From assembly GCA_001001045.1 (NCBI GenBank), contig LCIL01000005.1, forward strand, positions 21,409-85,408: DNA of 64,000 bases, in the 5' to 3' direction. Positions 24,221 to 50,123 of the stretch are shown here, in pieces (position 1 is the first letter of the stretch; every line of letters begins with the position of its first letter). The stretch is from Candidatus Woesebacteria bacterium GW2011_GWA1_44_23 (GTDB taxonomy: Bacteria > Patescibacteriota > Microgenomatia > UBA8517). A program made the position numbers and the translations under genes. The notes below the pieces were generated by a model. That model saw nothing but the letters and a program-made list of their open reading frames with translations, had not been told where the DNA came from and searched no databases.

Positions 24221-26149
24221 ATGGAAATAACCAAGCTCATCCGAAATATCGAAAAATACATCTTGGTAGCACTGGCGGGTTTATTTGCTTTATTTGTTTT
24301 TCCGAAATTTGCCTCCCCCTTCGTTGTCCCTAAGGAAATTTTTGGGGCCGTTGCCGTATCGACAGTGTTGGTTCTTTGGTCGGTGAGATCGATTATTAAA
24401 AGAGAGTCGACTTTTTCTGTCGGAAAGTTTGATCTTGGAGTACTTTTGATAGCACTTGCCTATGTTGTTGCGGCGGTAGTTAAAACTCCGAACAAAATGG
24501 AGGCATTTTTCTTCCCCGGTACCGTAACTTTTGTCATTATTTCTGCTATATTCTATTTTCTGGTCAACCAGTTCGGCAGAAGGACAAAGAACCTGATTTT
24601 AATTGCGCTTTTCGGCTCGGGAATCCTTCTTACGATCTCAATTCTTTTTACGCAGCTTGGGCTTTTTGCCAAAATTCCCCAGCTTCCGGATTTTATGAAA
24701 AACTCTTCTTTCAATCCCGTAGGCGGAGCGCTGCCTTCGGCTCTTTACCTGGTAACCTTACTTCCCGTTGGTATTGCCCTGGTTATTAAGGAGAAGGACT
24801 TGGCCAAAAGGTTATTTTACGGGGTTGCGTCTGTTGTTATCTTTTTTGGAGCAGCTCTTCTTACCATTAACCTTCTTCCCGGAAAGCCCCAAGCCTTGAT
24901 TTTTCCCAGCCTGCTGACCACCTGGGCGATAGTTATTGAGACCTTGAAGACAAGCCCAGTCTGGGGAATGGGCCCTGATAACTATGTTACCGCTTTTAAC
25001 TTGTTTAGGCCCATTTCCTACAATCAAACTGCTCTTTGGGCCGCCAGATATGCCACCGCGAATAACTACTATTTTACTTTGATTACCGAGGTTGGTTTTG
25101 CCGGACTTGCAGCCATCTCGGTACTTCTTATCGGTATTTATAGGGCGGTAGTGGCGGGCTTTAAACAGAAAAACTGGGAGATTGCTTCTTTGGCTCTGCT
25201 GGTTGTGCTTTTTGCGATATTTCCATCCGCTCCGGTTCTCTTTTTCCTTTTGATGGCTCTTCTGGCGGTTTTCTCGAAATCGGAGGAGAAATCCGTAAGT
25301 TTGGCTACCAATAGGGTCCCGACTGCCATTGTTGCAGCTCCGATACTTATTGGGGTTGTTGCTTTGGCAATTTTTGGTACAAGGGCCGTGATGGCGGAAG
25401 TAACTTACAAGAAGTCTTTGGATGCATTGGGCAGCAACAACGCCAAGGATACCTATACGCTAATGGCTCAGGCGATAACCCAGAGCCCATATGTGGATCG
25501 GTACCACGCTTCCCTGGCGCAGGTAGAGATGGCCATTGCTTCGTCAATCGCCAACAACAAGGATTTGACGGAAGAAGACCGTCAAACTATAACACAACTG
25601 ATCAGTCAGGCTATAAATGAGGGCAAGGCGACCGTGACCCTTAATCAGGGAAGGTCGGCCAATTGGGAGCTTCTTGCCCAGATCTATCAGAACATTATGT
25701 CCTTTGCCGAAGGGGCCGATCAGTTCGCCATTGATACATACACGCAGGCGGTTGCGCTTGATCCGATAAACCCCAACCTGAGAATCGGACTCGGTGGAGT
25801 GTATTACGCACTCGGCAGATACGATGACGCGATTGATATCTTTAAGCTTGCAGCTTTGGCAAAGCCCGATTTGGCCAACTCCCATTATAATCTGGCCATA
25901 GCCTATGGAGAGAAGAAAAACTATGACAGTGCAATTGCCGAGATGAACACGGTCTTGACCCTTGTGGCCAAAGATTCACCCGACTACACCTTGGCCAAAA
26001 ATACTCTGGATGCCTTGGAGAAAGCCAGACCCGCAACGCCCGCCGCAGCCGGATCTGAAAATCTGACCCCTCCCCAAAAGCAGGAAACAGTCATAGAGCC
26101 TCCCATAGAACTTCCGGAAGAGGCTACTCCCCCCGCAGCCACACCGTAA
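24221..26149 (+). CDS. O-antigen ligase-like (Wzy_C) polytopic membrane protein with C-terminal TPRs
   Basis: About 12 TM helices, PVWGMGPDNY and ITEVGFAGL motifs, then TPRs (AVALDPINPNLRIGLGGVYY; KPDLANSHYNLA). Confidence 0.75.
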   Translation: MEITKLIRNIEKYILVALAGLFALFVFPKFASPFVVPKEIFGAVAVSTVLVLWSVRSIIKRESTFSVGKFDLGVLLIALAYVVAAVVKTPNKMEAFFFPGTVTFVIISAIFYFLVNQFGRRTKNLILIALFGSGILLTISILFTQLGLFAKIPQLPDFMKNSSFNPVGGALPSALYLVTLLPVGIALVIKEKDLAKRLFYGVASVVIFFGAALLTINLLPGKPQALIFPSLLTTWAIVIETLKTSPVWGMGPDNYVTAFNLFRPISYNQTALWAARYATANNYYFTLITEVGFAGLAAISVLLIGIYRAVVAGFKQKNWEIASLALLVVLFAIFPSAPVLFFLLMALLAVFSKSEEKSVSLATNRVPTAIVAAPILIGVVALAIFGTRAVMAEVTYKKSLDALGSNNAKDTYTLMAQAITQSPYVDRYHASLAQVEMAIASSIANNKDLTEEDRQTITQLISQAINEGKATVTLNQGRSANWELLAQIYQNIMSFAEGADQFAIDTYTQAVALDPINPNLRIGLGGVYYALGRYDDAIDIFKLAALAKPDLANSHYNLAIAYGEKKNYDSAIAEMNTVLTLVAKDSPDYTLAKNTLDALEKARPATPAAAGSENLTPPQKQETVIEPPIELPEEATPPAATP

Positions 26150-26256: not shown

Positions 26257-27417
26257 ATGCCTGCCAAACTGCTTAGAAGGGTGGCTGAAGAAGGTACGTT
26301 CAGTCATATATATAATAACGGGGTTGAAAATATAGCCATCTTCAAGGACCGGCAAGACTTTGAAGTCTTTCTGGGTTTTTTGAAAGATTACCTATCTCCG
26401 GTCAGTTCCGAAGTTCCCAAAAAAGAATTCACTATTGAAGGCCGCTCTTTCCGGGGCACTCCCCGCCAACCTAAAAATTACCTGGGCAGAGTCGAGCTTA
26501 TCGCCTACCGGCTCACCCCTACCCATTTCCACCTCATCCTGCATCAGAATACCCCGGACTCGCTTGGGAATTTCATCAGGTCCCTCTGCACCAGATACTC
26601 GATATATTTTAATAAAAAATATTCCCATTCCGGAGCTTTATTCAACGGCCCCTACAAATCAGTTTATATCAAGGGTATATCCCAGCTTTTGCACTTCACC
26701 CGGTATCTCCACCGCAGTCCAGATAATGGTGAAGACCCTGTCAAAATATATACATCATACCCAGAGTATATCGGTCAAAGACAATCTTCATGGGTAAAGA
26801 CGAACGCGGTGCTTTCGGTCAAAGGAGTAGACGAGTACAAGGATTTTGTAGAAAAATATCAGCTTAACCAAGAAGAAAGAGATATTCTCGAAGGTGTTCC
26901 TTTTGATGTCAAAGCCCCGCACAAGGAAGAAGTCCTTTATGCACCCGACACCGTTTCCGCTTCTTCCCATGGGACACCTGAACTTTCCCACAAGGCACCG
27001 CCTACTGATTTAAAACCCCGGCCCCGTATTTTCGAGTACGGACTGGCAATGGGGGTTTTTATTGTACTTCTGAGCTTTGGGTTAAATAATGTCCGTGTTT
27101 CTCAGGCAAGATATTCAACAAACTCTCCGGTTCTTTCCGAATCAACAAGCATTATGCCCTCCCCGACCGCTGCCTTACCACCCACCGGTTCTCCCGAACC
27201 AAAAATAATGGTAACAGTTAAAACTGCTGATGCCTCGGTAAGTGCCAATATCCGCAAGGAGCCGAGTTTTCAGGCGGAAATAATCGGTATGGCCAAAAAC
27301 GGTGAAGTTTTTGAATCCGTGTCGATAGGCCCGGAGTGGAATGAGATCAAACTAAATGACGGTTCAATAGGATTTATATTATCAAAACTGGTACTAATAG
27401 ATCAAACTAATATCTAA
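26257..27417 (+). CDS. RAYT/Y1 (IS200-like HUH) transposase domain fused to TM helix and C-terminal SH3 domain
   Basis: HIYNNG...IFKDRQDF...AYRLTPTHFHL (HUH)...YFNKKY...GALF...RYLHRSP (catalytic Tyr position); TM YGLAMGVFIVLLSFGL; SH3b-like ANIRKEPS...IIG...WNEIKLNDGSIGFI. Confidence 0.85.
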   Translation: MPAKLLRRVAEEGTFSHIYNNGVENIAIFKDRQDFEVFLGFLKDYLSPVSSEVPKKEFTIEGRSFRGTPRQPKNYLGRVELIAYRLTPTHFHLILHQNTPDSLGNFIRSLCTRYSIYFNKKYSHSGALFNGPYKSVYIKGISQLLHFTRYLHRSPDNGEDPVKIYTSYPEYIGQRQSSWVKTNAVLSVKGVDEYKDFVEKYQLNQEERDILEGVPFDVKAPHKEEVLYAPDTVSASSHGTPELSHKAPPTDLKPRPRIFEYGLAMGVFIVLLSFGLNNVRVSQARYSTNSPVLSESTSIMPSPTAALPPTGSPEPKIMVTVKTADASVSANIRKEPSFQAEIIGMAKNGEVFESVSIGPEWNEIKLNDGSIGFILSKLVLIDQTNI

Positions 27418-27418
27418 T

Positions 27419-28009
27419 ATGCGCAAGATTTTAACATATATCGGCTTTGTAATCGCATGTGTTTTGGTTTCTCTGCTTTTTGTAACCGCCACTACATATA
27501 TTCAGTTAGCCGTTGCTGTCATCCTCTACCCCATCGTTGCCTATTTTGTAATGAAGATCCTCCCCCGCAAGACTAGAGTGGTCCCGGCAGTCGCGGTACA
27601 GACAGCGGGAACACAGGAGGAGGTTGCCGATTTTGACAGACGTACATTTCTCAAACTTGTGGGGGCAACAGGAATTTTCTTTTTTGTGTCCTCGCTTTTC
27701 GGTAAATGGGCCGGTGCTTTGCCGTTTGGCAAATCCTTGGGGTTGGGAGGCAATAGCATACAGGGGAATTCCGCCACCCCCGGAGCCGGCAACCCAGGAT
27801 CTTTGACTGCAAATGGCTACCAAATTTCCGAGATCGATGACGGCGCAATTACGTTTTACGGATTTACCAATGTTGACGGATCCTGGCTAATCATGAAGGA
27901 AGACACCGAAACAAGTTCTTTCCGCTATGCAAAAGGAAGCTCGGGATTTCCCGCAAGTTGGGATAACCGGCAAAATCTCAAGTACGACTACTACTATAAT
28001 CTCTTCTGA
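27419..28009 (+). CDS. Membrane protein with two TMs, internal twin-arginine signal and small C-terminal domain
   Basis: DFDRRTFLKLVGATGIFFFVSSLFG after two TM helices; C-terminal YQISEIDD...YGF...WLIM...FRY...W..R..L.YDYY. Confidence 0.75.
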   Translation: MRKILTYIGFVIACVLVSLLFVTATTYIQLAVAVILYPIVAYFVMKILPRKTRVVPAVAVQTAGTQEEVADFDRRTFLKLVGATGIFFFVSSLFGKWAGALPFGKSLGLGGNSIQGNSATPGAGNPGSLTANGYQISEIDDGAITFYGFTNVDGSWLIMKEDTETSSFRYAKGSSGFPASWDNRQNLKYDYYYNLF

Positions 28010-29100: not shown

Positions 29101-29886
29101 ATGCTCTCGATCATAATTCCGTCTTATAAAGATCCCCTACTGGGTAAAACCATTGAATCTCTTCTGGAAAACGCCGAGGGTGAAATAGAAATAATCCCCG
29201 TTCTTGACGGATACTACCCGGAAACCCCGATAAAAGAGGATAGAAGAATAAGAGTTGTGCACCTTGGCAGAAATCAAGGTATGCGAAGAGCGATAAACGC
29301 GGGAGTTTCGGTAGCCCGGGGGGAATTTCTGATGCGGAACGACGAGCACCAGATGTTCGGCAAGGGATATGACGTAATTCTTACCCGTGATTGTCAGCCT
29401 AACTGGATTATCACACCCAGGCGTTATGCGCTTGATCCTGTAAAGTGGGAAATAATGAAAGAGGTTCCACCGGTAGATTTCATGAAGCTTAAAATCGTCA
29501 ACATGGCACCCGGTGTCAGAAAATTTTCAGGTGTTGAGGCCCCGGGAGATCCGGGAAAACCCATTCAGGAATCAATGGCTATGCAGGGAAGCTGTTGGGT
29601 AATGCCGCATGCATGGTGGGACAAAGTTATCGGAGAGCTCGAAAACGAAGGTTATGGACCACATTATCAGGACAGCCATGAGATGGTGTTTAAAACCTGG
29701 CAGGCAGGGGGAAAATTAATGGTAGATAAAAACACCTGGCACGCCCACAAACACAGGAATTTTCCCCGGACGCATAATAACGGCACTGCCGAAAACCCAT
29801 CCAATAATGAATCCTGCTGGGCTTATTCATTAAGTATTTGGGAAGATTACTATAATAAAGAAATTAAACCAAGGTGGAAGGTTTAA
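29101..29886 (+). CDS. GT-A fold glycosyltransferase (GT2/GT27-like, DxH motif)
   Basis: LSIIIPSY, GMRRAINAG, NDEH, QGSCW, KTWQAGG...WHAH. Confidence 0.85.
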   Translation: MLSIIIPSYKDPLLGKTIESLLENAEGEIEIIPVLDGYYPETPIKEDRRIRVVHLGRNQGMRRAINAGVSVARGEFLMRNDEHQMFGKGYDVILTRDCQPNWIITPRRYALDPVKWEIMKEVPPVDFMKLKIVNMAPGVRKFSGVEAPGDPGKPIQESMAMQGSCWVMPHAWWDKVIGELENEGYGPHYQDSHEMVFKTWQAGGKLMVDKNTWHAHKHRNFPRTHNNGTAENPSNNESCWAYSLSIWEDYYNKEIKPRWKV

Positions 29887-29934
29887 CAAAATTGGAGTTA
29901 TAATTCCATCACGGTGGCTATTATATATGAAAGT

Positions 29935-30132
29935 ATGAAAAAAACTATTGGGGAGCTTATCGACGGACTGTCTATTACTAACAACAAGATCTTCCATCTC
30001 GTCGACAAAGTCCAGCGCAACGAGCATACGCGCGAGGATGCAAAAAAAATCCAAGATTTAAATAAGTTAAGAAGTGAGTATATGAATGCTATAAACGAAT
30101 TCTTTAAGGAAAGGATAGATATAAAAGTGTGA
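29935..30132 (+). CDS. Small helical protein (DUF4254-like)
   Basis: MKKTIGELIDGLSITNNKIFH...LNKLRSEYMNAINE; the T-x-GELID-x-LSI pattern is typical of small proteins in glycosylation clusters. Confidence 0.5.
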   Translation: MKKTIGELIDGLSITNNKIFHLVDKVQRNEHTREDAKKIQDLNKLRSEYMNAINEFFKERIDIKV

Positions 30133-30917
30133 TTAGTATTTTCTCTGGAACAAAATTAACATCCTCCCGGATTAGAGGTATAGAAATGGCTACCTATCTC
30201 CAGGCCAAACACAACCCAAAAGAAGGATATAAAAACGATGTTTGTATTTATGTCAAACCCAAAGAAATGAGCGCAATTAAAGACGGTGACTGGGTTGATT
30301 TTCTAGATTCCAACATCAGCCTCATCGTCCAGTTGAAGGATCGGCCAAAGGTAAAGGTGATTGCCGCTTCGGAAGCCAGCAATGAAGCCCTCAAGCGGGT
30401 TTTGCCAAACGAAATTATCCTTATTCCCTCACATCACATCAATCAGGAAAAACTTAAAAGAACAAGAAGGCAGATCTCTATCGGAGGCTATATCGGAGGA
30501 TTCTCACCCATGTATGAAGAAATTAGAAGAGGGTTAAAGAAAATCGGATTTGATTTTGTAACCTGCTTCGATTTCAAAGGACGAACAGATGCGATGAAAC
30601 TGTACGAAAGCATCGATCTTCTGATTATTGGGTGGTGGACCGGAGACGACAGCCCCCATAAGATACCGACCAAGATTATCAACGCCGCCTCGTTTGGAAT
30701 CCCGTCGATTGCATATCCTTTGCGCGGATATAAAGAAATTGAAGGATTTTATGTTTCTGCTCATAATTTAAGTGAGATAATAACTGAAGCGGAAAAATTT
30801 AAGGATGAGGACTATTACAATAGATGGGCAAAGAAGATTTCCAAGATGGCTGAAAAATACCATATTAGCAAGATTGCCAAACTATATAAAAAACTAAAAC
30901 CAGGTTTTCCTGCTTAA
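30129..30917 (+). CDS. Putative glycosyltransferase (GT-B-like)
   Basis: SSRIRG at the N-terminus; KIPTKIINAASFGIPSIAYP resembles a GT-B nucleotide-binding motif; lies in the GT operon. Confidence 0.55.
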   Translation: MISIFSGTKLTSSRIRGIEMATYLQAKHNPKEGYKNDVCIYVKPKEMSAIKDGDWVDFLDSNISLIVQLKDRPKVKVIAASEASNEALKRVLPNEIILIPSHHINQEKLKRTRRQISIGGYIGGFSPMYEEIRRGLKKIGFDFVTCFDFKGRTDAMKLYESIDLLIIGWWTGDDSPHKIPTKIINAASFGIPSIAYPLRGYKEIEGFYVSAHNLSEIITEAEKFKDEDYYNRWAKKISKMAEKYHISKIAKLYKKLKPGFPA

Positions 30918-31018
30918 ATCTCTTGAAGGAATGGGGTATTATACACATTCGGAGAGAAGAGTAATTCCATACCTTCCCTGCTGAGAATCGGGTAAAATGG
31001 TGCGTATAGAATATCCAT

Positions 31019-31888
31019 ATGGGTTCAAACAAAAAACCAATAAACTTATCAATAATAATTCCCAGTCGAGATTGCCCCTATTTAATGAAAACTATCCAAA
31101 GTATATTAGACAATTGCGTCACCAATATTGAAATTATGGTAAATATTGACGGAAAACCCCCGAGAAAATTTATTAAGGACAAAAAGGTCACATATATCGT
31201 ACAACCTACTCCAATTGGGATGCGGGGCGGAATAAATAATGGGCTTAAAGCAGCTAAGGGCAAATTTATAATGAAGTGCGATGACCACTGCTTATTTGCT
31301 AAAGGATTTGACAAGATTCTGACAAACACCATGCAAGAGAATTGGCTGGTAACCCCCAAACGTTATTCTCTAAACGAAGTGAAATGGGAAAGGGATGAAA
31401 CCCGACCAATTAAAGAATATCTCTACCTATCCTATCCCAAAAAGTCCGTTCACGGACTTGCCATGTTCCCCGTAGATTGGAATAAAAAAAGTGATCGTCT
31501 TATAGATGATACCATGATGATTCAGGGAAGCTGTTGGCTAGCAAACAGAAAATATTTCATGAAACGAGTGGGTTTTCTTGACGATAAGCCTGAAACGTAC
31601 GGGACCTTTGCCCAGGAACCCGTAGAAGTTGCTTTGAAATACTGGCTTGGAGGCGGGGCGGTCAAGGTAAACAAAAATACCTGGTATGCCCACCTAAAAA
31701 AGAGTAAAAGGTACTATAACGAAACAGGCTGGGCAGAAAAGTTTGCAAAGCAGAACAAAGCAGTAGCAAAAGGCAATGAATGGGCAACCGTACACTGGAT
31801 GAATAATGAGGAACCCAACATGATTCACCCTTTTAGCTGGTTTATAAAAAAATTTCAACCGATTCCGGGTTGGGAGAATTACAAATGA
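31019..31888 (+). CDS. GT-A fold glycosyltransferase (GT2/GT27-like, DxH motif)
   Basis: LSIIIPSR, GMRGGINNG, CDDHC, QGSCW, EVALKYWLGGG...WYAH. Confidence 0.85.
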   Translation: MGSNKKPINLSIIIPSRDCPYLMKTIQSILDNCVTNIEIMVNIDGKPPRKFIKDKKVTYIVQPTPIGMRGGINNGLKAAKGKFIMKCDDHCLFAKGFDKILTNTMQENWLVTPKRYSLNEVKWERDETRPIKEYLYLSYPKKSVHGLAMFPVDWNKKSDRLIDDTMMIQGSCWLANRKYFMKRVGFLDDKPETYGTFAQEPVEVALKYWLGGGAVKVNKNTWYAHLKKSKRYYNETGWAEKFAKQNKAVAKGNEWATVHWMNNEEPNMIHPFSWFIKKFQPIPGWENYK

Positions 31889-33372
31889 AAAAAATACTAA
31901 TAACAGGATGCGGAGGGATGTTGGGCGATGCTGTTTATGCTCAATTACGTAAAAGGTATCATGTCAACGCCACCGACATCAACCTCATTGAACCCTGGCT
32001 AAGTTACTTGGACGTCAGAGACCTTAAGAGTGTTAAAAAGGTTTGCGCCGAATTCAAACCGGATTATCTGATTCATCTGGCAGCCTTAACCGACATGGAA
32101 TACTGTGAAACCCACCCAGAAGAGGCGGCGCAAGTTAACGGAACTGCCACAGAAAATCTGGTTAAAATCTCCAAAAAACTTGATATTCCCTTTGTCTACA
32201 TCAGCACTGCAGGTATTTTTACCGATGACAAAAAGGAGCATAGCGAAAAAGACGACCCCAAAGACACTCCTGTAAGTGTATATGGCAAAACCAAATACCA
32301 AGGTGAGGTAGCAGCGAAATCATGGCGTAAGTCGATCATAATCAGGGCCGGTTGGATGATGGGTGGCGGACCCAAAAAGGACAAAAAATTCATCAATAAA
32401 ATTGTCAAACAATTAAGTAGCGGCGCTACAAAGATAAATGTGGTCAACGACAGGGTCGGCACCCCAAGCTATACCTACGATTTGGCAAAAATAATTGTAT
32501 TTCTTCTCGAAAGGAATCTTTACGGTTTATATCACGGCACTTGCGACGGAGGAAACGTAACCCGCCACGATGTCGTCAGTCATATACTTGAATGTTTTAA
32601 CTTGCAAGACAAGGTCAAAGTGGTTGAGGTGGGATCAGATTATTTTAAGGATAGTTTTTTTGCCCCGCGGCCGTTTTCCGAACAGCTAGGCAACAAAAAA
32701 CTTAAATCCACCAACCCAGAATTATTCCGCAGCTGGCGGGACTGTTTAAAGGAATATTTAGGCATGTTTTATTGGAAAGTATCAGGCAACCATACCCCGC
32801 TTTGCGATCTGGCCTATAAATACGGAACCGACAAATGTCCGGAAATAAACCATTCGTATACCCCTTTTTATTACAAATTGCTACAACCCAAAAGAAACTC
32901 TATCAAAAAGATTTTGGAAATAGGAATAGGCTACCCGTCCAACATGAATCATATCGTCCCCCATTACCGGGCGGGTGCAAGTTTATATATGTGGAGGGAG
33001 TTTTTCCCCAACGCCATGATTTACGGAGCTGATATTCTCCCGGAAGCGTTGTTCAAAGACGCACATATAGAAACTTTTTTGTGTAACCAGAAAAAAGACA
33101 CGGACCTAACGAATTTAATCAAAAGCACGGGCTCGGATATCGATATCGTAATTGACGACGGCTCTCATGTAAAAAAGGTCCAGGTGTTTACTTGCCTTAT
33201 CCTATTGCCTCTTCTCAAAAAAGATGTTATTTACATAATAGAAGATGTTAAAGATGCCGTCGAGGTTACCGGAATGATTAAAAAACTCGGCGGGTATGAT
33301 TGCGAGGTTCCGAAGTTGAACCCGGAAAGGCAAGTGAGGCAGGATTGTTTGGTTATTGTTAAAAACAAATGA
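31885..33372 (+). CDS. RmlD-like dTDP-4-dehydrorhamnose reductase fused to class I SAM methyltransferase
   Basis: ILITGCGGMLG, HLAALTDMEYCE, YGKTK, GTPSYTYDLA; then YGTDK...HSYTPFY...LEIGIG...GASLYMWREFFP...DIVIDDGSH. Confidence 0.85.
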   Translation: MKKILITGCGGMLGDAVYAQLRKRYHVNATDINLIEPWLSYLDVRDLKSVKKVCAEFKPDYLIHLAALTDMEYCETHPEEAAQVNGTATENLVKISKKLDIPFVYISTAGIFTDDKKEHSEKDDPKDTPVSVYGKTKYQGEVAAKSWRKSIIIRAGWMMGGGPKKDKKFINKIVKQLSSGATKINVVNDRVGTPSYTYDLAKIIVFLLERNLYGLYHGTCDGGNVTRHDVVSHILECFNLQDKVKVVEVGSDYFKDSFFAPRPFSEQLGNKKLKSTNPELFRSWRDCLKEYLGMFYWKVSGNHTPLCDLAYKYGTDKCPEINHSYTPFYYKLLQPKRNSIKKILEIGIGYPSNMNHIVPHYRAGASLYMWREFFPNAMIYGADILPEALFKDAHIETFLCNQKKDTDLTNLIKSTGSDIDIVIDDGSHVKKVQVFTCLILLPLLKKDVIYIIEDVKDAVEVTGMIKKLGGYDCEVPKLNPERQVRQDCLVIVKNK

Positions 33373-34091
33373 AAAATCTACTGGTTTATGTAAGTAAAGA
33401 TAAAAAGTTTAACCGGGAGTGTGAGACTCTGGCCAAAATCCAAATTGACAACAGTCTTCGTTTAAAGTGGAGAAAAGAAGATATTTTAATGGTCACTAAC
33501 TTTGATTATGAGTATCGGGGAGTTAAAGCTATCGTTGTAGGGGACGAGAATTATTGTGCAGTCAGGCCAAGATCGATTAAAACTTCGATAATCCCCCACT
33601 TAATTGAAAAGGGAATCATAGAAAAAAGGCATATTTACTGGAATCATGATTTTGACGCTTTTCAATTGCATTCTATCAAAGATGAAGAATTGGGACTAGA
33701 CGGTTTTGATGCGGGCTTTACCGACTACGGTTGGAAAAACGACTGGTGTTTGGGAAGTGATTTTATAAAGGAGAGCGCAAAAGACATCTTTGAGTGGCTG
33801 AGGGACGCAATATTTGCTAATTGGGAGGATGAGGAAATACTCGGAAGAATTACGAGAAGGAATACACATAATATCAACTCGAGAATAAAGAAAATGAATA
33901 TAACTTATCAGATTGGAATGAAAAACGTTGATTTTAACTACAAAATAGCTGCAAAACCGCTAAAAGTTCTCCACTTCCATCCGCATAAACCGGGGCTCCT
34001 AGACATCTTCATGTACGGCAAAAACCAAACGGACAAACCCCTTATGCCTAAGGGTTTAATCAATATATTTAATAAACACGGAATAAAGTAA
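33369..34091 (+). CDS. Putative glycosyltransferase/nucleotide-diphospho-sugar transferase
   Basis: DxD motif (WNHDFDAF), late LHFHP motif, position in the GT operon. Confidence 0.55.
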   Translation: MKNLLVYVSKDKKFNRECETLAKIQIDNSLRLKWRKEDILMVTNFDYEYRGVKAIVVGDENYCAVRPRSIKTSIIPHLIEKGIIEKRHIYWNHDFDAFQLHSIKDEELGLDGFDAGFTDYGWKNDWCLGSDFIKESAKDIFEWLRDAIFANWEDEEILGRITRRNTHNINSRIKKMNITYQIGMKNVDFNYKIAAKPLKVLHFHPHKPGLLDIFMYGKNQTDKPLMPKGLINIFNKHGIK

Positions 34092-34260
34092 ATACGTTAT
34101 GAGCAAACCATCAGTGGTGGCAATCTTGCCGAATTTTTAAAAAGTATTAGAAAAAGGTGCGAAAACCTATAGAGATCCATAATATTTGCAATCCAAATAT
34201 TAATTCCCAAACGAATATCCTGGGTATCGGAATGAAGGTCATGGAAATTTTCAGAAATAT

Positions 34261-34944
34261 ATGAATAGAGATTTAACAATAATTTATTACTCATCTAATC
34301 GGGAAGTGCCCGAGTTTGAGACCAGAATTAGGAACAATATTTTAAAAGTTTGTGGCGATTTGCCCATAATAAGCGTTACTCAAAAGCCGATAGACTTTGG
34401 AAAAAATATTGTTGTTGGAGATGTGGGAGCTTCTGGGTTTAACATGTTTAGGCAAGTTCAAATTGCCTGCAAGGAGGCAACAACGAAGTTCGTAGTTTCT
34501 GCTGAAGCGGATTGCTTGTACCCCCCGGACTATTTCACCTTTATTCCCGAGAAGGACAACGTATGTTACCGTAATAAAAATCTATATGTAATGGGTCAAT
34601 ATAGAACCTATTTCTACAAAAAGGAGGAAGGTGCAACGCACGCCCAAGTGGTCGGGCGGGAGTTCTGCTTAAGAACTCTGGATAAACTTTTTGAAGGAGG
34701 TCCGAATTGGTCAATCAAGGAGAGAAATTTCCCCAAAGAGAGGACTCATCAAAAAAAGGAGGATGTTTTTGGCAGTGACGAAATTGAATTCTACGAGACA
34801 AAAAATCCGATTGTACAAATAAAAACAAGCCACAGCATGCGACATTACACTCATTCTGATAGAATACCTCGTGACGAACTTCCCTATTGGGGCAAGGGGG
34901 TAGATTTTAGAAAAAAATATTACGATATCGGATTTAGGCATTAA
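34261..34944 (+). CDS. Putative GT-A-like glycosyltransferase
   Basis: TIIYYS...PIISVTQKPIDFGKNIVV...AEADCLYPPDYF; paralog of 35578..36321. Confidence 0.55.
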   Translation: MNRDLTIIYYSSNREVPEFETRIRNNILKVCGDLPIISVTQKPIDFGKNIVVGDVGASGFNMFRQVQIACKEATTKFVVSAEADCLYPPDYFTFIPEKDNVCYRNKNLYVMGQYRTYFYKKEEGATHAQVVGREFCLRTLDKLFEGGPNWSIKERNFPKERTHQKKEDVFGSDEIEFYETKNPIVQIKTSHSMRHYTHSDRIPRDELPYWGKGVDFRKKYYDIGFRH

Positions 34945-34946
34945 AT

Positions 34947-35576
34947 ATGAAACTAATAGATGCAATTAAAGAGCAGCACGGAAGGCCATTTACAATCCCC
35001 GATTGCTCCCGTGATGAACTCCCCGAATGTTTTAAACAAATGGGCTACAAAACAGGGGCAGAGGTCGGGGTTTATAAGGGGGCGTTTACCGAAAAATTCT
35101 GTAAAGCAGGCTTAAAAATGTATGCCATAGATCCCTGGAAGGCATATCAGGGAGCCGGCCGTACTCAACAGGAACAAGCAAGGCAAGACTTCCTTTACGG
35201 GCATACTCAAAGGACTCTCGCTCCCTATAAAGACTGTACAATAATCAGAAAGACGTCGATGGACGCTCTAAACGACTTCGGCCCGGGAAGCCTGGACTTT
35301 GTCTATTTGGACGGCGATCACCGCTTCCCGTACGTGGCACAAGATATTTATGAATGGAGCGAGAAAGTCAAAAACGGTGGGGTGGTCTCCGGGCATGATT
35401 ATTTCTGCACGGATCCACGGGCAAAAAATGTTTTGTGCCAGGTGGGCGCGATAGTAGATGCTTATGTTAGTGCCTTCGGAATTGAAAATTTTTATGTATT
35501 CGGACGGTCCAAATCACTGGAACTTGAGGCCAAAGATGACAGATATCTAAGCTGGATGTGGATTAAGCCTCTCTGA
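34947..35576 (+). CDS. Class I SAM-dependent methyltransferase (Methyltransf_24-like)
   Basis: GAEVGVYKG, YAIDPW, LDFVYLDGDH, VKNGGVVSGHDY. Confidence 0.85.
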   Translation: MKLIDAIKEQHGRPFTIPDCSRDELPECFKQMGYKTGAEVGVYKGAFTEKFCKAGLKMYAIDPWKAYQGAGRTQQEQARQDFLYGHTQRTLAPYKDCTIIRKTSMDALNDFGPGSLDFVYLDGDHRFPYVAQDIYEWSEKVKNGGVVSGHDYFCTDPRAKNVLCQVGAIVDAYVSAFGIENFYVFGRSKSLELEAKDDRYLSWMWIKPL

Positions 35577-35577
35577 C

Positions 35578-36321
35578 ATGACAAGCACAAAAGGGTGCAT
35601 TTACTACACCGATAACCGCCCGAAGTCTTTTATTTTGGATAAATGCCGTGAGGAAATTTTAAAAGGCTGGAAAGGTCCCCTGGTTTCGGTTTCGCTTCAA
35701 CCGATTGACTTCGGCAAAAATATAGTCTTGGCAGGGGTAGAACGCGGACTCCCGACTATGATCAAACAAATAACAATGGCTTTGGAGGCACTGGATACTG
35801 ACATTGTCTTTTTTCTGGAACATGATGTTTTATATCACCCGTCTCATTTCGATTTCACTCCCCCAAAGGAAGAAATCTATTATTACAATCTCAATAACTG
35901 GCGCTGGGGAATTAAGGAAAATTTTGCTATTACATACGATGGTCTGACCTCCCTTTCTCAACTCGCATGTTACCGAAAAACTGCCCTAAACCATTATAAA
36001 GGAAGACTTAAATACATCATTGACCACGGACTTAACAAGGACCAAAGCCGGGATCCGAGATGGGGACGGGTTATGGGCTACGAGCCCGGAACAAAGCCCA
36101 GGAGGAGGGGTGGTTTTTCCGATGAAAAGTTTGAGATTTGGAAAAGCGATTTTCCAAACATAGATATCCGCCACAGACATACATTTTCCCCGCCGAAATA
36201 CAATTTGGCTGATTTCAAACATCAACCGATAAACTTCCGCCAAGAGAAAATTGAAAATATTCCTTACTGGAATCTGAAAACGTTGCGGGATCAATGGCTG
36301 GATAAATACATAATAAATTAA
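35578..36321 (+). CDS. Putative GT-A-like glycosyltransferase
   Basis: CIYYTDN...VSVSLQPIDFGKNIV...LEHDVLYHPSHF; paralog of 34261..34944. Confidence 0.55.
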   Translation: MTSTKGCIYYTDNRPKSFILDKCREEILKGWKGPLVSVSLQPIDFGKNIVLAGVERGLPTMIKQITMALEALDTDIVFFLEHDVLYHPSHFDFTPPKEEIYYYNLNNWRWGIKENFAITYDGLTSLSQLACYRKTALNHYKGRLKYIIDHGLNKDQSRDPRWGRVMGYEPGTKPRRRGGFSDEKFEIWKSDFPNIDIRHRHTFSPPKYNLADFKHQPINFRQEKIENIPYWNLKTLRDQWLDKYIIN

Positions 36322-36406
36322 ATGAATAAAGGCATGGTTCTCCACACCGCTTTTCCCGGCTTTGATAATGCCTAAGTATGCTGTATTATTGCCTCACGCG
36401 AAACCT

Positions 36407-37474
36407 ATGGCTGATCTTTCAATATTAATACCGGCACGGAATGAAATATTTCTGGCCCGCACGATAGAAGACCTCCTGGCAAACATCGAGGCTGATACCG
36501 AGATCATCGCTGTTTTGGACGGGGTACCCGCCAACCCTCCGATTCCCAAAAATGAAAGAGTAAATGTAATCTCCCTTTCCGAAAGTATCGGACAAAGGGC
36601 GGCAACTAATCTTGCCTGTAAATTAAGCCGCGCCAAATATGTAATGAAGGTAGACGCACACTGCGGATTTGATAAAGGTTTTGACCGAAAAATGCTCGAG
36701 GCATTTAAAATTACCGGAGACAACGTTACGATGGTCCCAATTATGCGTAACCTCTGGGCATATGACTGGAAATGCTACCACTGCGGCTGGAAAAAATACC
36801 AAGGCCCCACTCCGGAAAAGTGTGGGCAGTGCGGTAAGGGAGACAAAATTAGAAGAAAGATGCTTTGGATCGGAAAACATAACCCTCAAAGTACTTCTTA
36901 CTGCTTTGACTCGTCTCCCCATTTCCAGTACTTCGAGGATTGGAAACACCGGCCGCAATACGAAAAAGACAAGAGAGAAACGGGACTGACTGAAACAATG
37001 AGCCTGCAGGGCAGCTGCTGGATGTTGACCCGCGAAAAATACTGGGACCTTAATGTTTGCGAAGAAGCATTTGGGGGTTGGGGTTCTCAGGGAATTGAAG
37101 TTGCGGTTAAAACCTGGCTTTCCGGAGGTAGAGTTATTGTCAATCATAAAACTTGGTATGCACATATGTTTAGAACCCAAGGGGGCGACTTCGGGTTCCC
37201 CTACCCGATTTCAGGAAAGGATCAGGAAAAGGCGAAAAGATATGCAAGGGATTTGTTTTTCAACAATAACTGGAATAAGCAAATTCGCCCTCTTTCCTGG
37301 CTCATCGAAAAATTCTGGCCGGTGAAGGGGTGGGCAGAAGAAGACTTGACCAAGCTTAAAACAAACACTTTCAGATTTAAAGAGAAAGCGGAGCCAAAAC
37401 CTGCCGAGAGTGAGCCCGTTACAAGTGATCCGGTAAGAAACCATCAGACGGGTGTTATTTACTCCGCCACTTAA
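36407..37474 (+). CDS. GT-A fold glycosyltransferase (GT2/GT27-like) with zinc-ribbon insertion
   Basis: DLSILIPARNE, VDAHC, CYHC...CGQC insert, QGSCW, GWGSQGIEVAVKTWLSGG...YAHMFR. Start placed at MADLS. Confidence 0.85.
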   Translation: MADLSILIPARNEIFLARTIEDLLANIEADTEIIAVLDGVPANPPIPKNERVNVISLSESIGQRAATNLACKLSRAKYVMKVDAHCGFDKGFDRKMLEAFKITGDNVTMVPIMRNLWAYDWKCYHCGWKKYQGPTPEKCGQCGKGDKIRRKMLWIGKHNPQSTSYCFDSSPHFQYFEDWKHRPQYEKDKRETGLTETMSLQGSCWMLTREKYWDLNVCEEAFGGWGSQGIEVAVKTWLSGGRVIVNHKTWYAHMFRTQGGDFGFPYPISGKDQEKAKRYARDLFFNNNWNKQIRPLSWLIEKFWPVKGWAEEDLTKLKTNTFRFKEKAEPKPAESEPVTSDPVRNHQTGVIYSAT

Positions 37475-37648: not shown

Positions 37649-40600
37649 ATGGCAGTAACATACGTCAAAGCTAGTACCCCCAATACAGATGCGGCGGGAG
37701 CCTTTACAGTAACAGGTGCAGCTCCTGCTGTTGCTGGGAATATTATCATCCTTCAAATTTTTCAGGACGGTACTACTGACGGGGCGGTAACTCAAACCAG
37801 TGCTACCAATATTACTGCTCTAGATGGTACGGCTAATACATGGACTGCTATTACCGAACAGTCGGTAGGAGCATCAGACGAAGGTAGACAGTATCTATGG
37901 GTAGGGCGTTCAAGCGGAAGGTCTACTCCCACATTTACAGGCGGCAACACAACTTCAGAGGATCTTTACCTCAGGATGTATGAGTTTAGCGGAGTAGATG
38001 CTAATGCCACGACTTTATCTGGGATTCTTGAAAACGGTACTGCAGGAACTGTAGCTAACGGCACTGGAACATCTGCGTCCGTTTCTGATACAAGCGTTCA
38101 GACACTGGGAGATGGCCGGCTCGCATTAAATTTTATCGCTGTAAACGATGATCCCCAGGCAGCAGAACTAGCCGCAATGACTGGTGAAACAGGGGGGGAT
38201 TGGGCTTATCCTGTTGCTGCGTGGGGTTCTAGTTCTGGCACTGACGGTACAATCGCTTTAGTTACAGCTTCTATCCCTTCTTCGGGAACAATTGATGGAG
38301 GCTCAGATGCCATAACTTCAGCTGCTTGGGGGGTGATAGGCTTTGCCCTTAAACCTGAATTTACTCCAACAGTAGCTTTAAGTACCCCTGCAGATGACGC
38401 GACAGGAGTAAGTACCACCCCAGCCCTAGTTTTTACAGGAACAGATGCTAACTCAGATGAAGTGGAATATGAGGTACAGGTAGATACAGTAAACACTTTT
38501 GATTCTTCGTCAGCCACTATGGCTAGCAATAGTGAAAGTACTTATGACCATGATTACATTGATAATTATAATTCAGTACCTCCTTCATGGTATGGTCAGA
38601 CATTTACCCCACCTTTTATGGGACCCGTCACTTCAGTTAAGTTTTATTTAAAAGGTTCCGATGGTTTAACGGGTAACATGCCAGTTAGATTGTATGCCAC
38701 AGACACCTCTGGTACTCCAGTAGGTGAAATATTAGCCACATCAGCTAATTTGGATTTATCTAGTCTTTCAACTTCTGCTTATGAACTAGTAGAGTTTATA
38801 TTTAGTTCCCCATACACAGTTGAGTCTGGGGTTCTGTATGCATTAACTTTAGAAAATCTTAGTTCCTCTAACCTATATGTTGGTGCAGATATTAGTTCTC
38901 CTGCTTATACAAATGGTACTGCAATTAGTATGAGTCCCGGTGGTTACCTGACTGTTGCTAGTGATTTATGTTTTTATGTTTATAGTGGAGGTTCTCTTCT
39001 TGACATCTTCTCCCTCGCCGATAACGATGCTAACTGGGCAGGCACAGGAGCACCTAATCCCTTTCCTTCAGGAAATGAAATAACCTATACAGTACCGGCA
39101 GGAAGTGCTTTAGCCGCAGGAACTACTTATTACTGGAGAGTACGAGCTATTGACCCTCTAGGAAGTAATGCCTGGGGATCTTGGAGTCCTGGGGCACATA
39201 GTGGATATAGTGAGTTTACAACACAGGCAACAGGTTCATTTTCGCCTTCGATTTCTCCATCTGTAAGTCCAAGTGCGTCTCCTTCGGTATCCCCCTCAGT
39301 CAGTCCGTCTATCTCGCCTTCTGTAAGTCCCTCAGTTAGCCCTAGTGTTTCCCCAAGTCTATCTCCCAGCGTTTCTCCTTCTGCATCTGTTTCGCCATCA
39401 ATCTCACCCAGTGTTAGTCCTTCGGAAAGCCCATCAGTATCGCCCTCGGTCTCGCCTTCAGTTTCACCCTCTGCATCCATATCTCCATCGACCTCACCCA
39501 GTGTTAGTCCATCAGTAAGTCCCAGTGCAAGTGCTAGCCCATCGGTCTCACCATCGGCTAGTCCGTCGGTGTCTCCCAGCGTTTCTCCTTCCGTAAGTCC
39601 GTCGGCTTCTGTTAGTCCGTCTATGAGTCCGAGTGTATCGCCCTCTGTAAGTCCCTCTGCATCAGTTTCACCATCTATCAGTCCTTCTGTGTCTCCCTCC
39701 GTCAGCCCCAGTGTCAGCCCCAGTGTCTCACCCAGCGCAAGTATCTCTCCAAGTGTTAGTCCCAGCGTGTCGCCAAGTGCTTCTCCTTCTATTTCACCTT
39801 CCGTTTCTCCATCAGCTTCTATATCTCCGTCAGTTTCGGAAAGTGTAAGTCCATCCGTTAGCCCAAGTGCGAGTGTAAGCCCGTCGGAATCACCGTCAGT
39901 TAGTCCATCTGTATCTCCAAGCTTTAGCCCTTCGATCTCAGCCAGTATATCGCCAAGCATATCTCCGAGTGTGTCCCCTTCGGCTTCCGTATCCCCATCG
40001 GTTTCCCCCAGTATCAGCCCTTCTGTCTCCCCAAGTGCCAGCCCAAGTCAAAGCCCATCGGCATCAATTAGTCCTTCCGTAAGTCTATCCATTTCTCCTT
40101 CTTTCTCTCCGTCCGCATCCATTAGTCCCAGTGTCTCTCCCAGCATATCGCCCTCGATCAGTCCATCAGTATCCCCTTCGGAGTCTCCCTCTGCATCAGC
40201 TAGCCCATCTATTAGCCCTAGCGTATCTCCTTCTGTCTCGCCCAGTGCTTCTGTGTCCCCTTCGGTAAGTCCGTCTGCAAGTGTTTCGCCTTCTGTCTCC
40301 CCATCGGCCAGTCCATCTGTCTCTCCGAGTCAAAGTCCATCGATTAGCCCATCAATTAGTCCGAGTATATCTCCTTCCGTTTCGCCTTCAGCGTCGATTA
40401 GTCCGTCAATTAGTCAATCAGCAAGTCCGTCAGTGTCACCGAGTGCGAGTATTAGCCCTTCACTAAGTCCAAGCATGTCTCCTTCTGTTTCTCCTTCTGG
40501 GTCAATCTCACCCTCAATAAGTGCTTCCGTTTCGCCTTCTGTCTCCCCTTCAGCATCTATTTCTCCGTCAATAAGTCCTTCTATTAGTCCGTCTGTTTCC

Positions 40601-42855: not shown

Positions 42856-43902
42856 GTGACTGCCCATGATTATCAAGCCAAACTAAATGGGGTACTATAT
42901 TCCCATGTTTATCGTGATCTCGCATCTGAAAAAATTTTCATTGATAACGAAGATTATCAGGCATTCGTAAACTTCTTAAATGAATACTTGTCTGACAAAA
43001 ATGTTGATGATAGTAAAAAAATATTTACAATAAGGGGGCATACTTACCAAGGAGTCCCCCGTTTACCTAAAAACTTCTCTAAACAGATTGAGCTTTTAGC
43101 CTATAAGTTAGAGCCAAATCGTTTTGACTTCCTGATAAGAGAAAATGTTCCTGGGACTACTCAAAAGTTCATAAGAGCCGTATCAACAAGGTACGCCCTA
43201 TACTACAACAAGAAACATCATCGAACCGGTTCCCTATTCAAGGATACTTACAAACTGGAAAGAATCAGCGATCCTGCACTACTACCAGGTCTAATTCGTA
43301 GCCTCCACAGTAACTTTAGTAAAAAAGACGGTGTGCCCGATCATGCTTACTCTTCATGCCCTGAATATCTTGGTCAAAGAGCATCGAATTGGATCAATTC
43401 GCAGGCTATACTTTCTAATGAAGGACTGGGTGATCAAAAGCTGTACCCGGAAAAGGGTAAACCGGAAACCGGTGTACGTGTCACCCGTTATCGCCCAAGA
43501 TCCAAAGCCAGGGTACCAGAAATAATATTATCCATTGCGATTCTGGCTATGCTAATAGCTCAAAGTATATTAAGAATCGAAACTTCTTCAACATCAAAAG
43601 CTTCATACTCGCCTCCTTCATACGCTACGGTTCTGGGTGACAAAAGGGAAGCAACGGAAGACGAAAATATAAAAACCGTAGAAGTGAATCAAGGGAAGGT
43701 TTTAATTGATACCGTTGATAATTTGGAAAGTGTAGATATCTATCGGGACGCTTTGTTATCGTCACTTAAAATTGGCGAGGCTAAGGATAATGACATCTTT
43801 GAGCTTGTTTCTGAAAGCCCGGGCTGGTATCAAGTAAAACTTATTAATGGGTCAACTGGCTATGTCTCGTCAGAATATTCGGAAATAATAACGAATTATT
43901 AA
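42856..43902 (+). CDS. Degenerate RAYT/Y1 domain fused to TM and SH3 domain (paralog of 26257..27417)
   Basis: IFIDNEDY...LLAYKLEPNRFDF (HUH lost)...YYNKKHHRTGSLF...IRSLHSN (Tyr lost); TM IILSIAILAMLIA; SH3 VDIYRD...GWYQVKLINGSTGYVS. Confidence 0.8.
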   Translation: MTAHDYQAKLNGVLYSHVYRDLASEKIFIDNEDYQAFVNFLNEYLSDKNVDDSKKIFTIRGHTYQGVPRLPKNFSKQIELLAYKLEPNRFDFLIRENVPGTTQKFIRAVSTRYALYYNKKHHRTGSLFKDTYKLERISDPALLPGLIRSLHSNFSKKDGVPDHAYSSCPEYLGQRASNWINSQAILSNEGLGDQKLYPEKGKPETGVRVTRYRPRSKARVPEIILSIAILAMLIAQSILRIETSSTSKASYSPPSYATVLGDKREATEDENIKTVEVNQGKVLIDTVDNLESVDIYRDALLSSLKIGEAKDNDIFELVSESPGWYQVKLINGSTGYVSSEYSEIITNY

Positions 43903-43903
43903 A

Positions 43904-44572
43904 ATGATCAAAAAAATTATGTTATATGGCAGTTTCTTGGCTGCCAGCTCTGCTGATACGGCCGTTTTCCTTGCGTCTAATGATTATTTTCATCTTGCGC
44001 TTGCCATCCTTCTTTATTTCCCGTTAATTTATATTGCTTTTATAATATTTCCTCGCAGAACCGAATTTGCTGGGAATGTCCCAATCCACCAGGGAAATGG
44101 AATAGAGCCAAACCTGCTAACCACTAACAAGATCGGACAATTTTCCGGCTCCCCTTCCCCTTCGACCGACAGCGTCGAAGTTTCCGACATCAATAAACGG
44201 GTGTTTCTCAAAATGATTGGGGCTACGGGTTTATCCTTCTTCATTTCTTCTCTTATTTCAAAAAGGTTGCCTTCTCATGTTTTCGGGCAATCTGAAGAAC
44301 CAACAACAACCTCTATCATAGATTCCACAGGAGAGGCAGTAGACCCTGCCAAGCACCACCCCACTGACAGCTATAAAATTTCCGAGGTCGACTATGGAAT
44401 TAATACCTATTATGGCTTTATTGATGAAAATGATGGCTGGTTCATTATGGAACAAGATACAAATGCCGGAACCTACCGTTATATAAAAGGCAATGCGAAT
44501 TTTCCTGATAATTGGAGGAGCCGCGAAAGTCTTACATATGACTATTACAATAAAATTTTTGCCAAATCGTGA
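43904..44572 (+). CDS. Membrane protein with internal Tat-like signal (paralog of 27419..28009)
   Basis: DINKRVFLKMIGATGLSFFISSLI; C-terminal YKISEVD...YYGF...WFIM...YRY...W..R..L.YDYY. Confidence 0.75.
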   Translation: MIKKIMLYGSFLAASSADTAVFLASNDYFHLALAILLYFPLIYIAFIIFPRRTEFAGNVPIHQGNGIEPNLLTTNKIGQFSGSPSPSTDSVEVSDINKRVFLKMIGATGLSFFISSLISKRLPSHVFGQSEEPTTTSIIDSTGEAVDPAKHHPTDSYKISEVDYGINTYYGFIDENDGWFIMEQDTNAGTYRYIKGNANFPDNWRSRESLTYDYYNKIFAKS

Positions 44573-49731: not shown

Positions 49732-49935
49732 ATGCTTAATTTCATTAAAAATATCGGTCCCGTAGAGTGGGTGGTTATTCTTCTTATTCTGATAATAATT
49801 TTCGGCCGCAAAATACTTGTAAGCCTTGGCCGTGCCAGTGGTGAAACAGTTAGGGAACTGAAAAGCGTTAAGAAAAGCTTGACCGACGCTGTTGAAGGAA
49901 CAGAGGACAAGCCCGAGAAGAAGGAGGTGTCTTAA
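49732..49935 (+). CDS. tatA: TatA/TatB-family translocase subunit
   Basis: IGPVEWVVILLILIIIFG hinge, then amphipathic LGRASGETVRELK. Confidence 0.8.
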   Translation: MLNFIKNIGPVEWVVILLILIIIFGRKILVSLGRASGETVRELKSVKKSLTDAVEGTEDKPEKKEVS

Positions 49936-49941
49936 AAATTT

Positions 49942-50103
49942 ATGTTTCAATCGATAGGGACAACAGAGTGGATAATAATTGCCGTCTTGGTACTTTTACT
50001 CTTCGGAGGAAAAAAGATTCCGGAATTTTTCAAAGGCATCGGTGAGGCCGTCAGGGAGTTTAAGAAAGCTTCAAAAGATACCGACGAGAAAAAAGAAGGA
50101 TAA
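49942..50103 (+). CDS. tatA: TatA translocase subunit (53 aa, below ORF-track cutoff)
   Basis: [53 protein letters not shown]; RBS AAGGAGGT at 49921. Confidence 0.92.
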
Positions 50104-50123
50104 TCCAGTAGAATGTTCTCAAG

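Follow-up and report, generated by a model that had tools for sequence, protein, structure and literature searches.

The 64,000-nucleotide window analysed here, from the ultra-small groundwater bacterium Candidatus Woesebacteria bacterium GW2011_GWA1_44_23, lies on contig C5 of a 596 kb genome assembly. It contains a run of nine genes, all on the forward strand, in which three genes for glycosyltransferases (GTs) resembling the polypeptide N-acetylgalactosaminyltransferases (ppGalNAc-Ts) of family GT27 are interleaved with six others; two genes encoding long Ser/Pro repeat tracts belong to the same locus. Genes are named by their start positions, and the nine-gene run is referred to as the cassette. 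Named close homologs are from Patescibacteria, which indicates a bacterium of the candidate phyla radiation, probably of the Microgenomates. The evidence described below supports a GT27-like nature of the three enzymes and points to one of them, 36407, as the candidate for placing the first sugar on the repeats. The main features are:

29101-29886, forward strand: GT27-like gene 29101 (261 aa), a paralog of subfamily A3, with DxH, the C-terminal His and an acid at the middle xED position kept
31019-31888, forward strand: GT27-like gene 31019 (289 aa), a paralog of subfamily A4, with a pattern like that of 29101, assigned by profile
36407-37474, forward strand: GT27-like gene 36407 (355 aa from ATG), a GT-A enzyme and candidate priming (peptide-acceptor) transferase, based on fold, metal site and peptide-pocket aromatics
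37649-42538, forward strand: candidate acceptor 1 (1629 aa), consisting of a 530-aa N-terminal region, the tract and a C-terminal domain
45051-49365, forward strand: candidate acceptor 2, with a like tract and C-terminal domain, in three reading frames in this assembly

The open reading frame (ORF) of 36407 can be extended to a TTG at position 36362; the ATG at 36407 is preferred as the start because the homologs begin at that ATG. The first repeat gene starts 175 nt downstream of the 36407 stop codon. Its tract comprises about 950 residues of (Ser-X)n, with 472 Ser and 198 Pro, in which Ser alternates with other residues (its autocorrelation at even lags is 0.97) and Pro recurs at intervals of mostly four, and the conserved C-terminal domain measures ~45 residues. 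Pro is found at position +3 of 194 of the 471 tract Ser residues, and at both -1 and +3 of 141. The frame of the second repeat gene is broken near 46480 and 47750, beside exact internal DNA duplications of 60-99 bp; these breaks may be an assembly error or real slippage. In the whole assembly, SPSX tracts are confined to the two repeat genes of this locus, and the GT family has no members beyond 29101, 31019 and 36407.

The motifs from which the original prediction had argued for a GT27 relationship are all present: DxH in place of DxD (NDEH in 29101, CDDHC in 31019 and VDAHC in 36407), QGSCW and E-x3-K-x-W-x2-GG...AH in all three proteins, and GWGSQGIEVAVKTWLSGG...YAHMFR in 36407. DxH instead of DxD is given as a mark of GT27 and GT60 (PMC7185993, partial text). 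The pairwise identities of the three proteins are 27-38%, and the motif pattern is not due to chance, because all 252 non-redundant members of the family have Asp83, His85 and His253 (36407 numbering); Glu231 is conserved in 94%. In a profile alignment Asp83, His85 and His253 coincide with D209, H211 and H344 of GalNAc-T1 (T1). Pfam detects only the GT2 nucleotide-binding half of the enzymes, matching the N-terminal PF00535 region with E-values of 6e-12 to 7e-14. With 36407 alone as a query, ppGalNAc-Ts rank first in the PDB (best E 7e-5). Single-sequence searches with 29101 and 31019 gave generic GT2 N-terminal matches only, with no ppGalNAc-T lead, so that the GT27 signal of these two proteins needs profiles. 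For a profile of 103 family sequences, the 14 best PDB matches are all ppGalNAc-Ts (E 1e-20 to 2e-16); these matches span positions 5-260 of 299, whereas GT2 matches cover only the first 80-120 positions. Separate profiles of each of the three subfamilies likewise place ppGalNAc-Ts first, above any GT2.

AlphaFold models of 36407 (pLDDT 92.8) and 29101 (pLDDT 94.3) were compared with 48,161 chains, with 31019 being placed by profile only. The 36407 model matches mouse GalNAc-T1 and Toxoplasma GalNAc-T3 with Z-scores of 26.7 and 24.7, the next chain, which is not GT27, scoring 18.2; for the 29101 model the corresponding values are 24.6, 23.2 and 19.9. Among the Foldseek matches listed for the 36407 model there are GalNAc-Ts only. 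Profile and structure comparison, for which the original prediction had proposed HHpred and Foldseek, puts ppGalNAc-Ts ahead of any GT2, and a GT27-like rather than an ordinary GT2 assignment is supported for all three enzymes, by profiles for all and by models for 36407 and 29101. The xED position reads S-Q-G in 36407, Q-D-S in 29101 and Q-E-P in 31019, none of which has the xED-Asp base. Most inverting GT-As keep this Asp, and inverting families without it are also listed (PMC7185993, partial text); judged from the alignment, its absence fits a retaining mechanism without proving it. A ricin lectin domain and a type II membrane anchor were looked for and are absent from the three proteins (261-355 aa, no such Pfam match, no hydrophobic segment), for which reason the enzymes are called GT27-like and not GT27. 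The 36407 model ends in a helix followed by a disordered tail.

The family counts 6,446 relatives at 90% clustering. In a family-only tree of 58 sampled rows, the 36407 type stands apart from the other two with a support of 0.97, while the 29101 types are nested among the 31019 types.

This split is also evident at the residue level. In the profile alignment, which compares sequences only, F265, W267, F346, R347 and W316 of T1 correspond to F173, Y175, F255, R256 and W225 of 36407. By a constant offset of 15, the T1 residues would be F280, W282, F361, R362 and W331 of GalNAc-T2 (T2). Pro-x-Pro acceptors are recognised through F280, W282 and F361 of T2, and activity is almost lost in Ala mutants of two of the three (PMC4432651; PMC6994419, both partial text); favourable positions for Pro in the acceptor are -3, -1, +1 and +3 (PMC6994419, partial text). 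All five 36407 residues recur unchanged in each of the 43 aligned proteins of the 36407 type. In the 36407 type, which was collected at 131 loci, F-x-Y/W is found in 128/131, WG..G.E in 123/131 and H.FR in 128/131 proteins, against 7/61, 1/61 and 0/61 in the 29101 type and 10/68, 2/68 and 1/68 in the 31019 type. In 29101 and 31019 the position of F255 is taken by His or Lys, and the F-x-Y strand reads F-S-G or M-F-P. The counterpart of the ppGalNAc-T motif WGGENLE is WGSQGIE in 36407, with the W, the G and the last E kept and the first E replaced by Q; in 29101 (HYQDSHE) and 31019 (FAQEPVE) an acid is kept and WG is gone. The register of the repeat appears to fit the Pro-x-Pro pocket of the 36407 type. 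A Zn-ribbon-like CxxC...CxxC insertion, at residues ~123-141 of 36407, occurs in 68/131 of the 36407-type proteins and in no member of the 29101 and 31019 subfamilies.

The association of the enzymes with Ser/Pro repeats, as the original prediction had paired them, was surveyed across the class in 250 other genomes that are at least 90% complete. The family was called at E 1e-40 with at most nine candidates scored per genome, so that some carriers may be missed, and a tract was called at six or more matches to either of two repeat patterns. Seventeen genomes, from 10 families, are enzyme-positive; 13 of these have a Ser-type tract by pattern, in a 14th (L007) the tract was read directly beside the cassette, and in the remaining three the cassette runs off the contig end. 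Among the 233 enzyme-negative genomes, one of which (G095) is unpublished and counts in that denominator only, four pass the count, all with Thr-Pro linkers, and none has a Ser-type tract. The pairing therefore holds in 14/17 positive versus 0/233 negative genomes; the corresponding Fisher's p of 1e-18 is overstated because the genomes are kin. A first, looser repeat pattern was dropped, as it counted mostly Thr-Pro linkers (37/41 genomes), and no count was drawn from a repeat-pattern scan of viral contigs, which let in many non-Ser tracts. Scanning species genomes yielded 54 loci, from which three partial ones were dropped. Of the 51 analysed, 29 show a tract; among the bacterial loci with 5 kb or more of downstream sequence the fraction is 19/26. 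Tandem paralogs of a Ser/Thr-rich, unannotated protein of ~373 aa follow the 36407 type at L323:11120-14528, L009:1581-3907 and L002:4225-5148. Such proteins are present in seven bacterial loci, L323 having no SPSX tract in view, and are possible alternative acceptors.

The same pairing is found in phages. A viral scan gave 88 relatives of 36407, of which the best 80 were kept, several being near-duplicates. A Ser/Pro tract lies on the same strand within 10 kb at 69 of these 80 loci and on the opposite strand at none; 9 of the 11 tract-less loci have less than 2 kb of contig downstream. The cassette has terminase, portal, capsid and tail genes as neighbours. Tracts are joined to unrelated virion proteins: a post-capsid protein, a phrog_290 tail protein and a phrog_3287 protein. 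As a control, loci were defined by the capsid only; 79 of 80 were tabulated and 33 dropped for having less than 3 kb downstream. The remaining 46 comprise 41 with tract and enzyme, four with neither and one with the tract only, which lies 3.5 kb from the contig end. The cassette-negative phages have a different, tract-free gene after the capsid (3 of 4 mapped). Because absence arises three times in a capsid tree of 43 rows, the phage evidence amounts to three concordant events, not 46. In 4/41 full-flank loci the 36407 type is the sole GT27-like gene. The cassette is at least as much a phage virion module as a bacterial system. Minimal phage cassettes of one 36407-type gene, one methyltransferase and one other GT were observed at L097:5524-7761 and L098:6859-8670, where they adjoin a (Ser-Ser-Thr-Pro)n tract. 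A phage-like contig with terminase, capsid and cassette (L014, G037:C59) lies inside a same-order bacterial genome bin, which suggests that these phages infect bacteria of the candidate phyla radiation (CPR). Searches of GenBank with 36407 gave no match among 50,697 phage records (tblastn, E 0.01) and none among plasmids, and 29101 as query gave partial GT2 matches only; none of the three proteins has a PHROG family.

The (Ser-X)n Pro-rich tracts are very probably the target of the cassette, and the evidence leans towards a cytoplasmic, stepwise O-glycosylation of the tracts that is primed by 36407 and elaborated by the other cassette enzymes. For the peptide acceptor, the order of action, retention, glycan methylation and export we infer the following course. 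36407 would bind the P-S-X-S-P register of the repeat, as alignment and model suggest, and, with a nucleotide-sugar as donor, attach the first sugar to Ser in a Mn-dependent and probably retaining reaction. 29101 and 31019, in which the metal site is kept and the peptide pocket is not, are for that reason placed later, presumably acting on glycopeptide or glycan. The other GT-A and GT-B enzymes may extend the glycan and the methyltransferases may O-methylate it, yielding a stiff glycan-coated fibre that CPR bacteria would display at the cell surface and phages on their virion proteins; in the bacteria, export might perhaps proceed via the Tat genes of the locus, for which the support is weak.

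Several observations weigh against this reading. GT27 is placed in one clade with the glycan-extending GT7 and chondroitin polymerases (PMC7185993, partial text), so the acceptor cannot be deduced from a GT27-like fold alone. Sequence and hydropathy give no visible signal peptide or other export signal in the repeat proteins. No tract is seen within the 10 kb viewed at 7 of the 26 bacterial loci that have 5 kb or more of downstream sequence, and some capsid-defined loci show 31019-type genes only, within 10 kb. At L317:9992-11609 two divergent family members follow a terminase, with no Ser/Pro tract within 10 kb on either side. The loci were gathered with 36407 as the query, which makes its presence everywhere a matter of construction, and the capsid query of the control set was taken from a cassette-positive phage; the phage sample is related, with only three independent changes. 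Finally, E319 of T1 (E334 of T2) is Gln in 36407 (Gln in 59% and Met in 19% of the subfamily), and Thr replaces the Arg that precedes the DxH strand. Both residues presumably have a role in GalNAc binding; the donor pocket of 36407 differs from that of GalNAc-Ts by these two replacements, and the sequence does not support GalNAc as its donor.

The original prediction had all three enzymes act directly on the repeats; they could then be isoforms for naked serines and for serines with glycosylated neighbours. Each subfamily does rank ppGalNAc-Ts first, and DxH, the C-terminal His and the later Glu are common to all; some animal and Toxoplasma GalNAc-Ts favour glycopeptides (PMC11074326, partial text), and as only about 40% of tract Ser residues have Pro at +3, sites would be left for a fill-in enzyme. 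Direct action on the peptide is likely for 36407, which keeps the pocket aromatics and WG/HxFR, but its extension to 29101 and 31019 is not supported: these signatures are found in 123-128 of 131 36407-type proteins against 0-10 of the 61 or 68 proteins of the other types, where WG..G.E (1/61 and 2/68) and H.FR (0/61 and 1/68) are nearly absent, and the 29101 and 31019 types vary in number and kind from locus to locus. A peptide-directed role for all three is accordingly unlikely.

It is somewhat harder still to credit that the tracts are glycosylated but primed by a second GT-A family, a GT-B or a host enzyme, the GT27-like enzymes acting in extension only. The second GT-A family (34261 and 35578, see below) occurs at 101/131 loci, in some of them fused behind the 36407 domain, and in the serine-rich repeat proteins of Gram-positive bacteria priming is by GtfA/B, with other GTs extending (PMC6973325, partial text). 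However, the aromatics of the peptide groove are invariant in the 36407 subfamily, a GT-B occurs at only 25/131 loci, and the L097 and L098 cassettes show no second-family gene or GT-B match. It is least credible that the product of the cassette is a surface polysaccharide, or its target something other than the tracts, and that its presence on one island or in one phage late operon with Ser/Pro spacers has no functional meaning, since, despite variable nucleotide diphosphate (NDP)-sugar genes and methyltransferases that would also suit polysaccharide loci, some loci without a tract in view, and the co-occurrence of genes on one mobile island regardless of function, the phage tract is grafted onto unrelated virion proteins and vanishes with the enzymes, and the nine cassette proteins are all soluble by hydropathy, with no flippase, polymerase or lipid-carrier family matched among them in the Pfam scan.

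Compared with known systems, the proposed priming by 36407 is closest to that by the GT27 ppGalNAc-Ts (mouse T1, 8v9q; human T2; Toxoplasma T3, 8uhv). The catalytic fold is similar (Z 24-27 for the models of 36407 and 29101; root-mean-square deviations of 2.3-3.1 Å over 238-271 residues at 16-19% identity), as are DxH and the C-terminal His and, in 36407, the W-G motif, HxFR and the F/aromatic/F pocket, and candidate acceptors are Ser/Pro-rich. Unlike GT27, the cassette enzymes have no ricin lectin domain or membrane anchor and are presumably cytoplasmic; 36407 has WGSQGIE for WGGENLE, about half of its type carries the Zn-ribbon-like insertion, and the enzyme is encoded beside its candidate acceptor on a mobile cassette. 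The pp-alpha-GlcNAc-transferases of GT60, which range over Dictyostelium, Trypanosoma and also prokaryotes, share DxH and the absence of a lectin domain and have soluble cytoplasmic members (PMC7185993; PMC8724618, both partial text). However, similarity to PF11397 is faint (11/103 family members at E up to 0.05, best 0.0023, and none for 36407 itself), and there are no GT60 entries among the structure matches. With canonical inverting GT2 enzymes the PF00535 region is common, but the cassette enzymes have DxH instead of DxD and lack the xED-Asp.

The Gram-positive serine-rich repeat glycoproteins resemble the present system in their alternating-Ser tract and in soluble GTs whose genes cluster next to that of the acceptor, with stepwise glycosylation before export (PMC6973325, partial text). 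They differ in that the candidate primer here is a GT27-like GT-A and not GtfA/B, the tract has regular Pro, the locus contains tat genes and methyltransferases, and the tract also occurs on phage virion proteins. A long signal peptide, LPxTG and secA2/secY2 were not found in the locus by sequence, hydropathy and Pfam search of 31 window proteins, which include all island genes of more than 190 aa except the second repeat gene. Mycobacteriophage GTs glycosylate capsid and tail proteins (Freeman et al. 2023, via PMC12619734 and PMC12582341, partial texts), and the GTs are phage-encoded there too; in contrast, the candidate acceptors of the cassette are long repeat tracts, from tens to more than 1,000 residues, and 36407 is without a match in GenBank phages.

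The literature describes mucin-type priming by GT27 as a eukaryotic process. The single prokaryotic mention found is an untested annotation of a GT27 candidate in a Bacillus genome (PMC3178493), and a literature search, with most subscription journals and supplements outside its coverage, gave no description of the family or the cassette. What is added here is a distinction between the three paralogs at the level of residues, a negative control across the class and the boundaries of the island on which the cassette lies. As a broader and tentative proposal, possible rather than probable, CPR bacteria and uncultured phages may run their own mucin-type O-glycosylation, in which a large sister group of GT27, made up of prokaryotic and viral enzymes, primes portable Ser-Pro tracts on surface fibres and virion proteins, preserving a lectin-free cytoplasmic form that could be ancestral to the eukaryotic mucin-initiating enzymes. 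A conserved prokaryotic and phage family with a GT27 peptide pocket beside a candidate acceptor opens three questions to test: where mucin initiation originated, by what means ultra-small episymbionts and their phages may acquire a surface coat, and whether Ser/Pro tags can be glycosylated in the cytoplasm of E. coli by enzymes that are small, soluble and free of a lectin domain, a task for which human GalNAc-T2 is used at present (PMC13345888). The contrast of 36407 with 29101 and 31019 names the first enzyme to assay, and the L097 and L098 phage cassettes form the simplest system for tests.

The other genes of the cassette, and the features of the surrounding accessory island, are:

24221-26149: left island flank, TPR protein
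26150-51949: accessory island, whose flanking genes are close together in genomes G001 and G018
30129-30917, forward strand: probable GT-B (GT4-like), with weak matches only (PF13692, E 0.0045; phrog_4356, E 5.7e-5)
31870-33372, forward strand: RmlD-like NDP-sugar reductase (PF04321, E 5e-53) fused to a probable S-adenosylmethionine (SAM) methyltransferase domain
33369-34091, forward strand: unannotated, probable GT-A transferase (HDxD), PF03407-like by language-model features only (score 0.96, 172 shared)
34261-34944, forward strand: second GT-A family (ExD motif), paralog 1; Atlas model with TM 0.70 to GT2-domain proteins
34947-35576, forward strand: Methyltransf_24 SAM methyltransferase (PF13578, E 1.3e-13)
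35578-36321, forward strand: second GT-A family, paralog 2 (38% to 34261 over 105 aa)
49732-50873, forward strand: tat genes, with two tatA-like ORFs (49732-49935 and 49942-50103, by eye) and tatC (50124-50873)
50865-51821, reverse strand: NDP-sugar epimerase, the last island gene, passing no NCBIfam cut-off
51950-53098: right island flank, M23 peptidase

The steady companions of the 36407 type are the methyltransferase, of which the Methyltransf_24 family is present at 104/131 cassette loci, and the second GT-A family. The RmlD-like part of 31870 is below the TIGR01214 cut-off; stand-alone homologs of its C-terminal part match PF13578 in four of five cases, and the window's own domain matches nothing. 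The family profile of 33369 gave no relevant Pfam or PDB match; 34261 has no PDB match by sequence, and the family profiles of 34261 and 35578 found nothing in the PDB or Pfam. Natural polyproteins of 1,150-1,350 aa that combine two GT domains with a methyltransferase (P0122, P0123, P0125 and P0128) are consistent with a shared pathway.

The supply of donor sugar varies between cassettes. In the original prediction the 50865 epimerase could provide a galacto-configured donor. It does lie on the same island, but it reaches no NCBIfam cut-off and such epimerases occur at only 32/131 cassette loci; matches at E 1e-45 are found in 3/10 cassette-positive and 5/30 negative relatives, and a role as UDP-GalNAc supplier is not supported. 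Its three most similar relatives adjoin 36407 orthologs. Its PDB matches include 6zl6 and MoeE5, which we take to be UDP-glucuronate 4-epimerases. UDP-glucose-dehydrogenase-like genes are present at 24/131 loci and are sometimes fused to the 36407 domain, and together with the epimerases they hint at uronic-acid donors in some cassettes. A UDP-glucose/GDP-mannose dehydrogenase-like domain is fused to or stands beside the 36407 type in P0017 and at L043:6413-7171, with no C-terminal Pfam domain detected in it.

TatC is found in 10/17 cassette-positive versus 15/233 negative genomes of the class, and the eight closest copies (56-69%) are all from cassette-positive genomes. Tat export is a lead only, because the repeat proteins have no visible signal peptide or twin-arginine signal.

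The island of 26 kb, which contains the enzymes, both repeat genes, the tat genes and the 50865 epimerase, is absent from a same-genus genome: its flanks are 1.9 kb apart in G001, a single-contig genome of the same genus, and 0.2 kb apart in G018. Since the flanks lie this close together in these genomes, the enzymes, repeats, tat genes and epimerase were gained or lost as a unit. Outside the island, 54505-57291 on the reverse strand encodes a multi-membrane protein of 928 aa with no Pfam or NCBIfam match. A pair consisting of a Y1/HUH-TM-SH3 gene and a membrane partner is duplicated at 26257-28009 and 42856-44572; each pair lies upstream of the cassette or of a repeat gene, and the arrangement recurs in 10/26 bacterial cassette loci.

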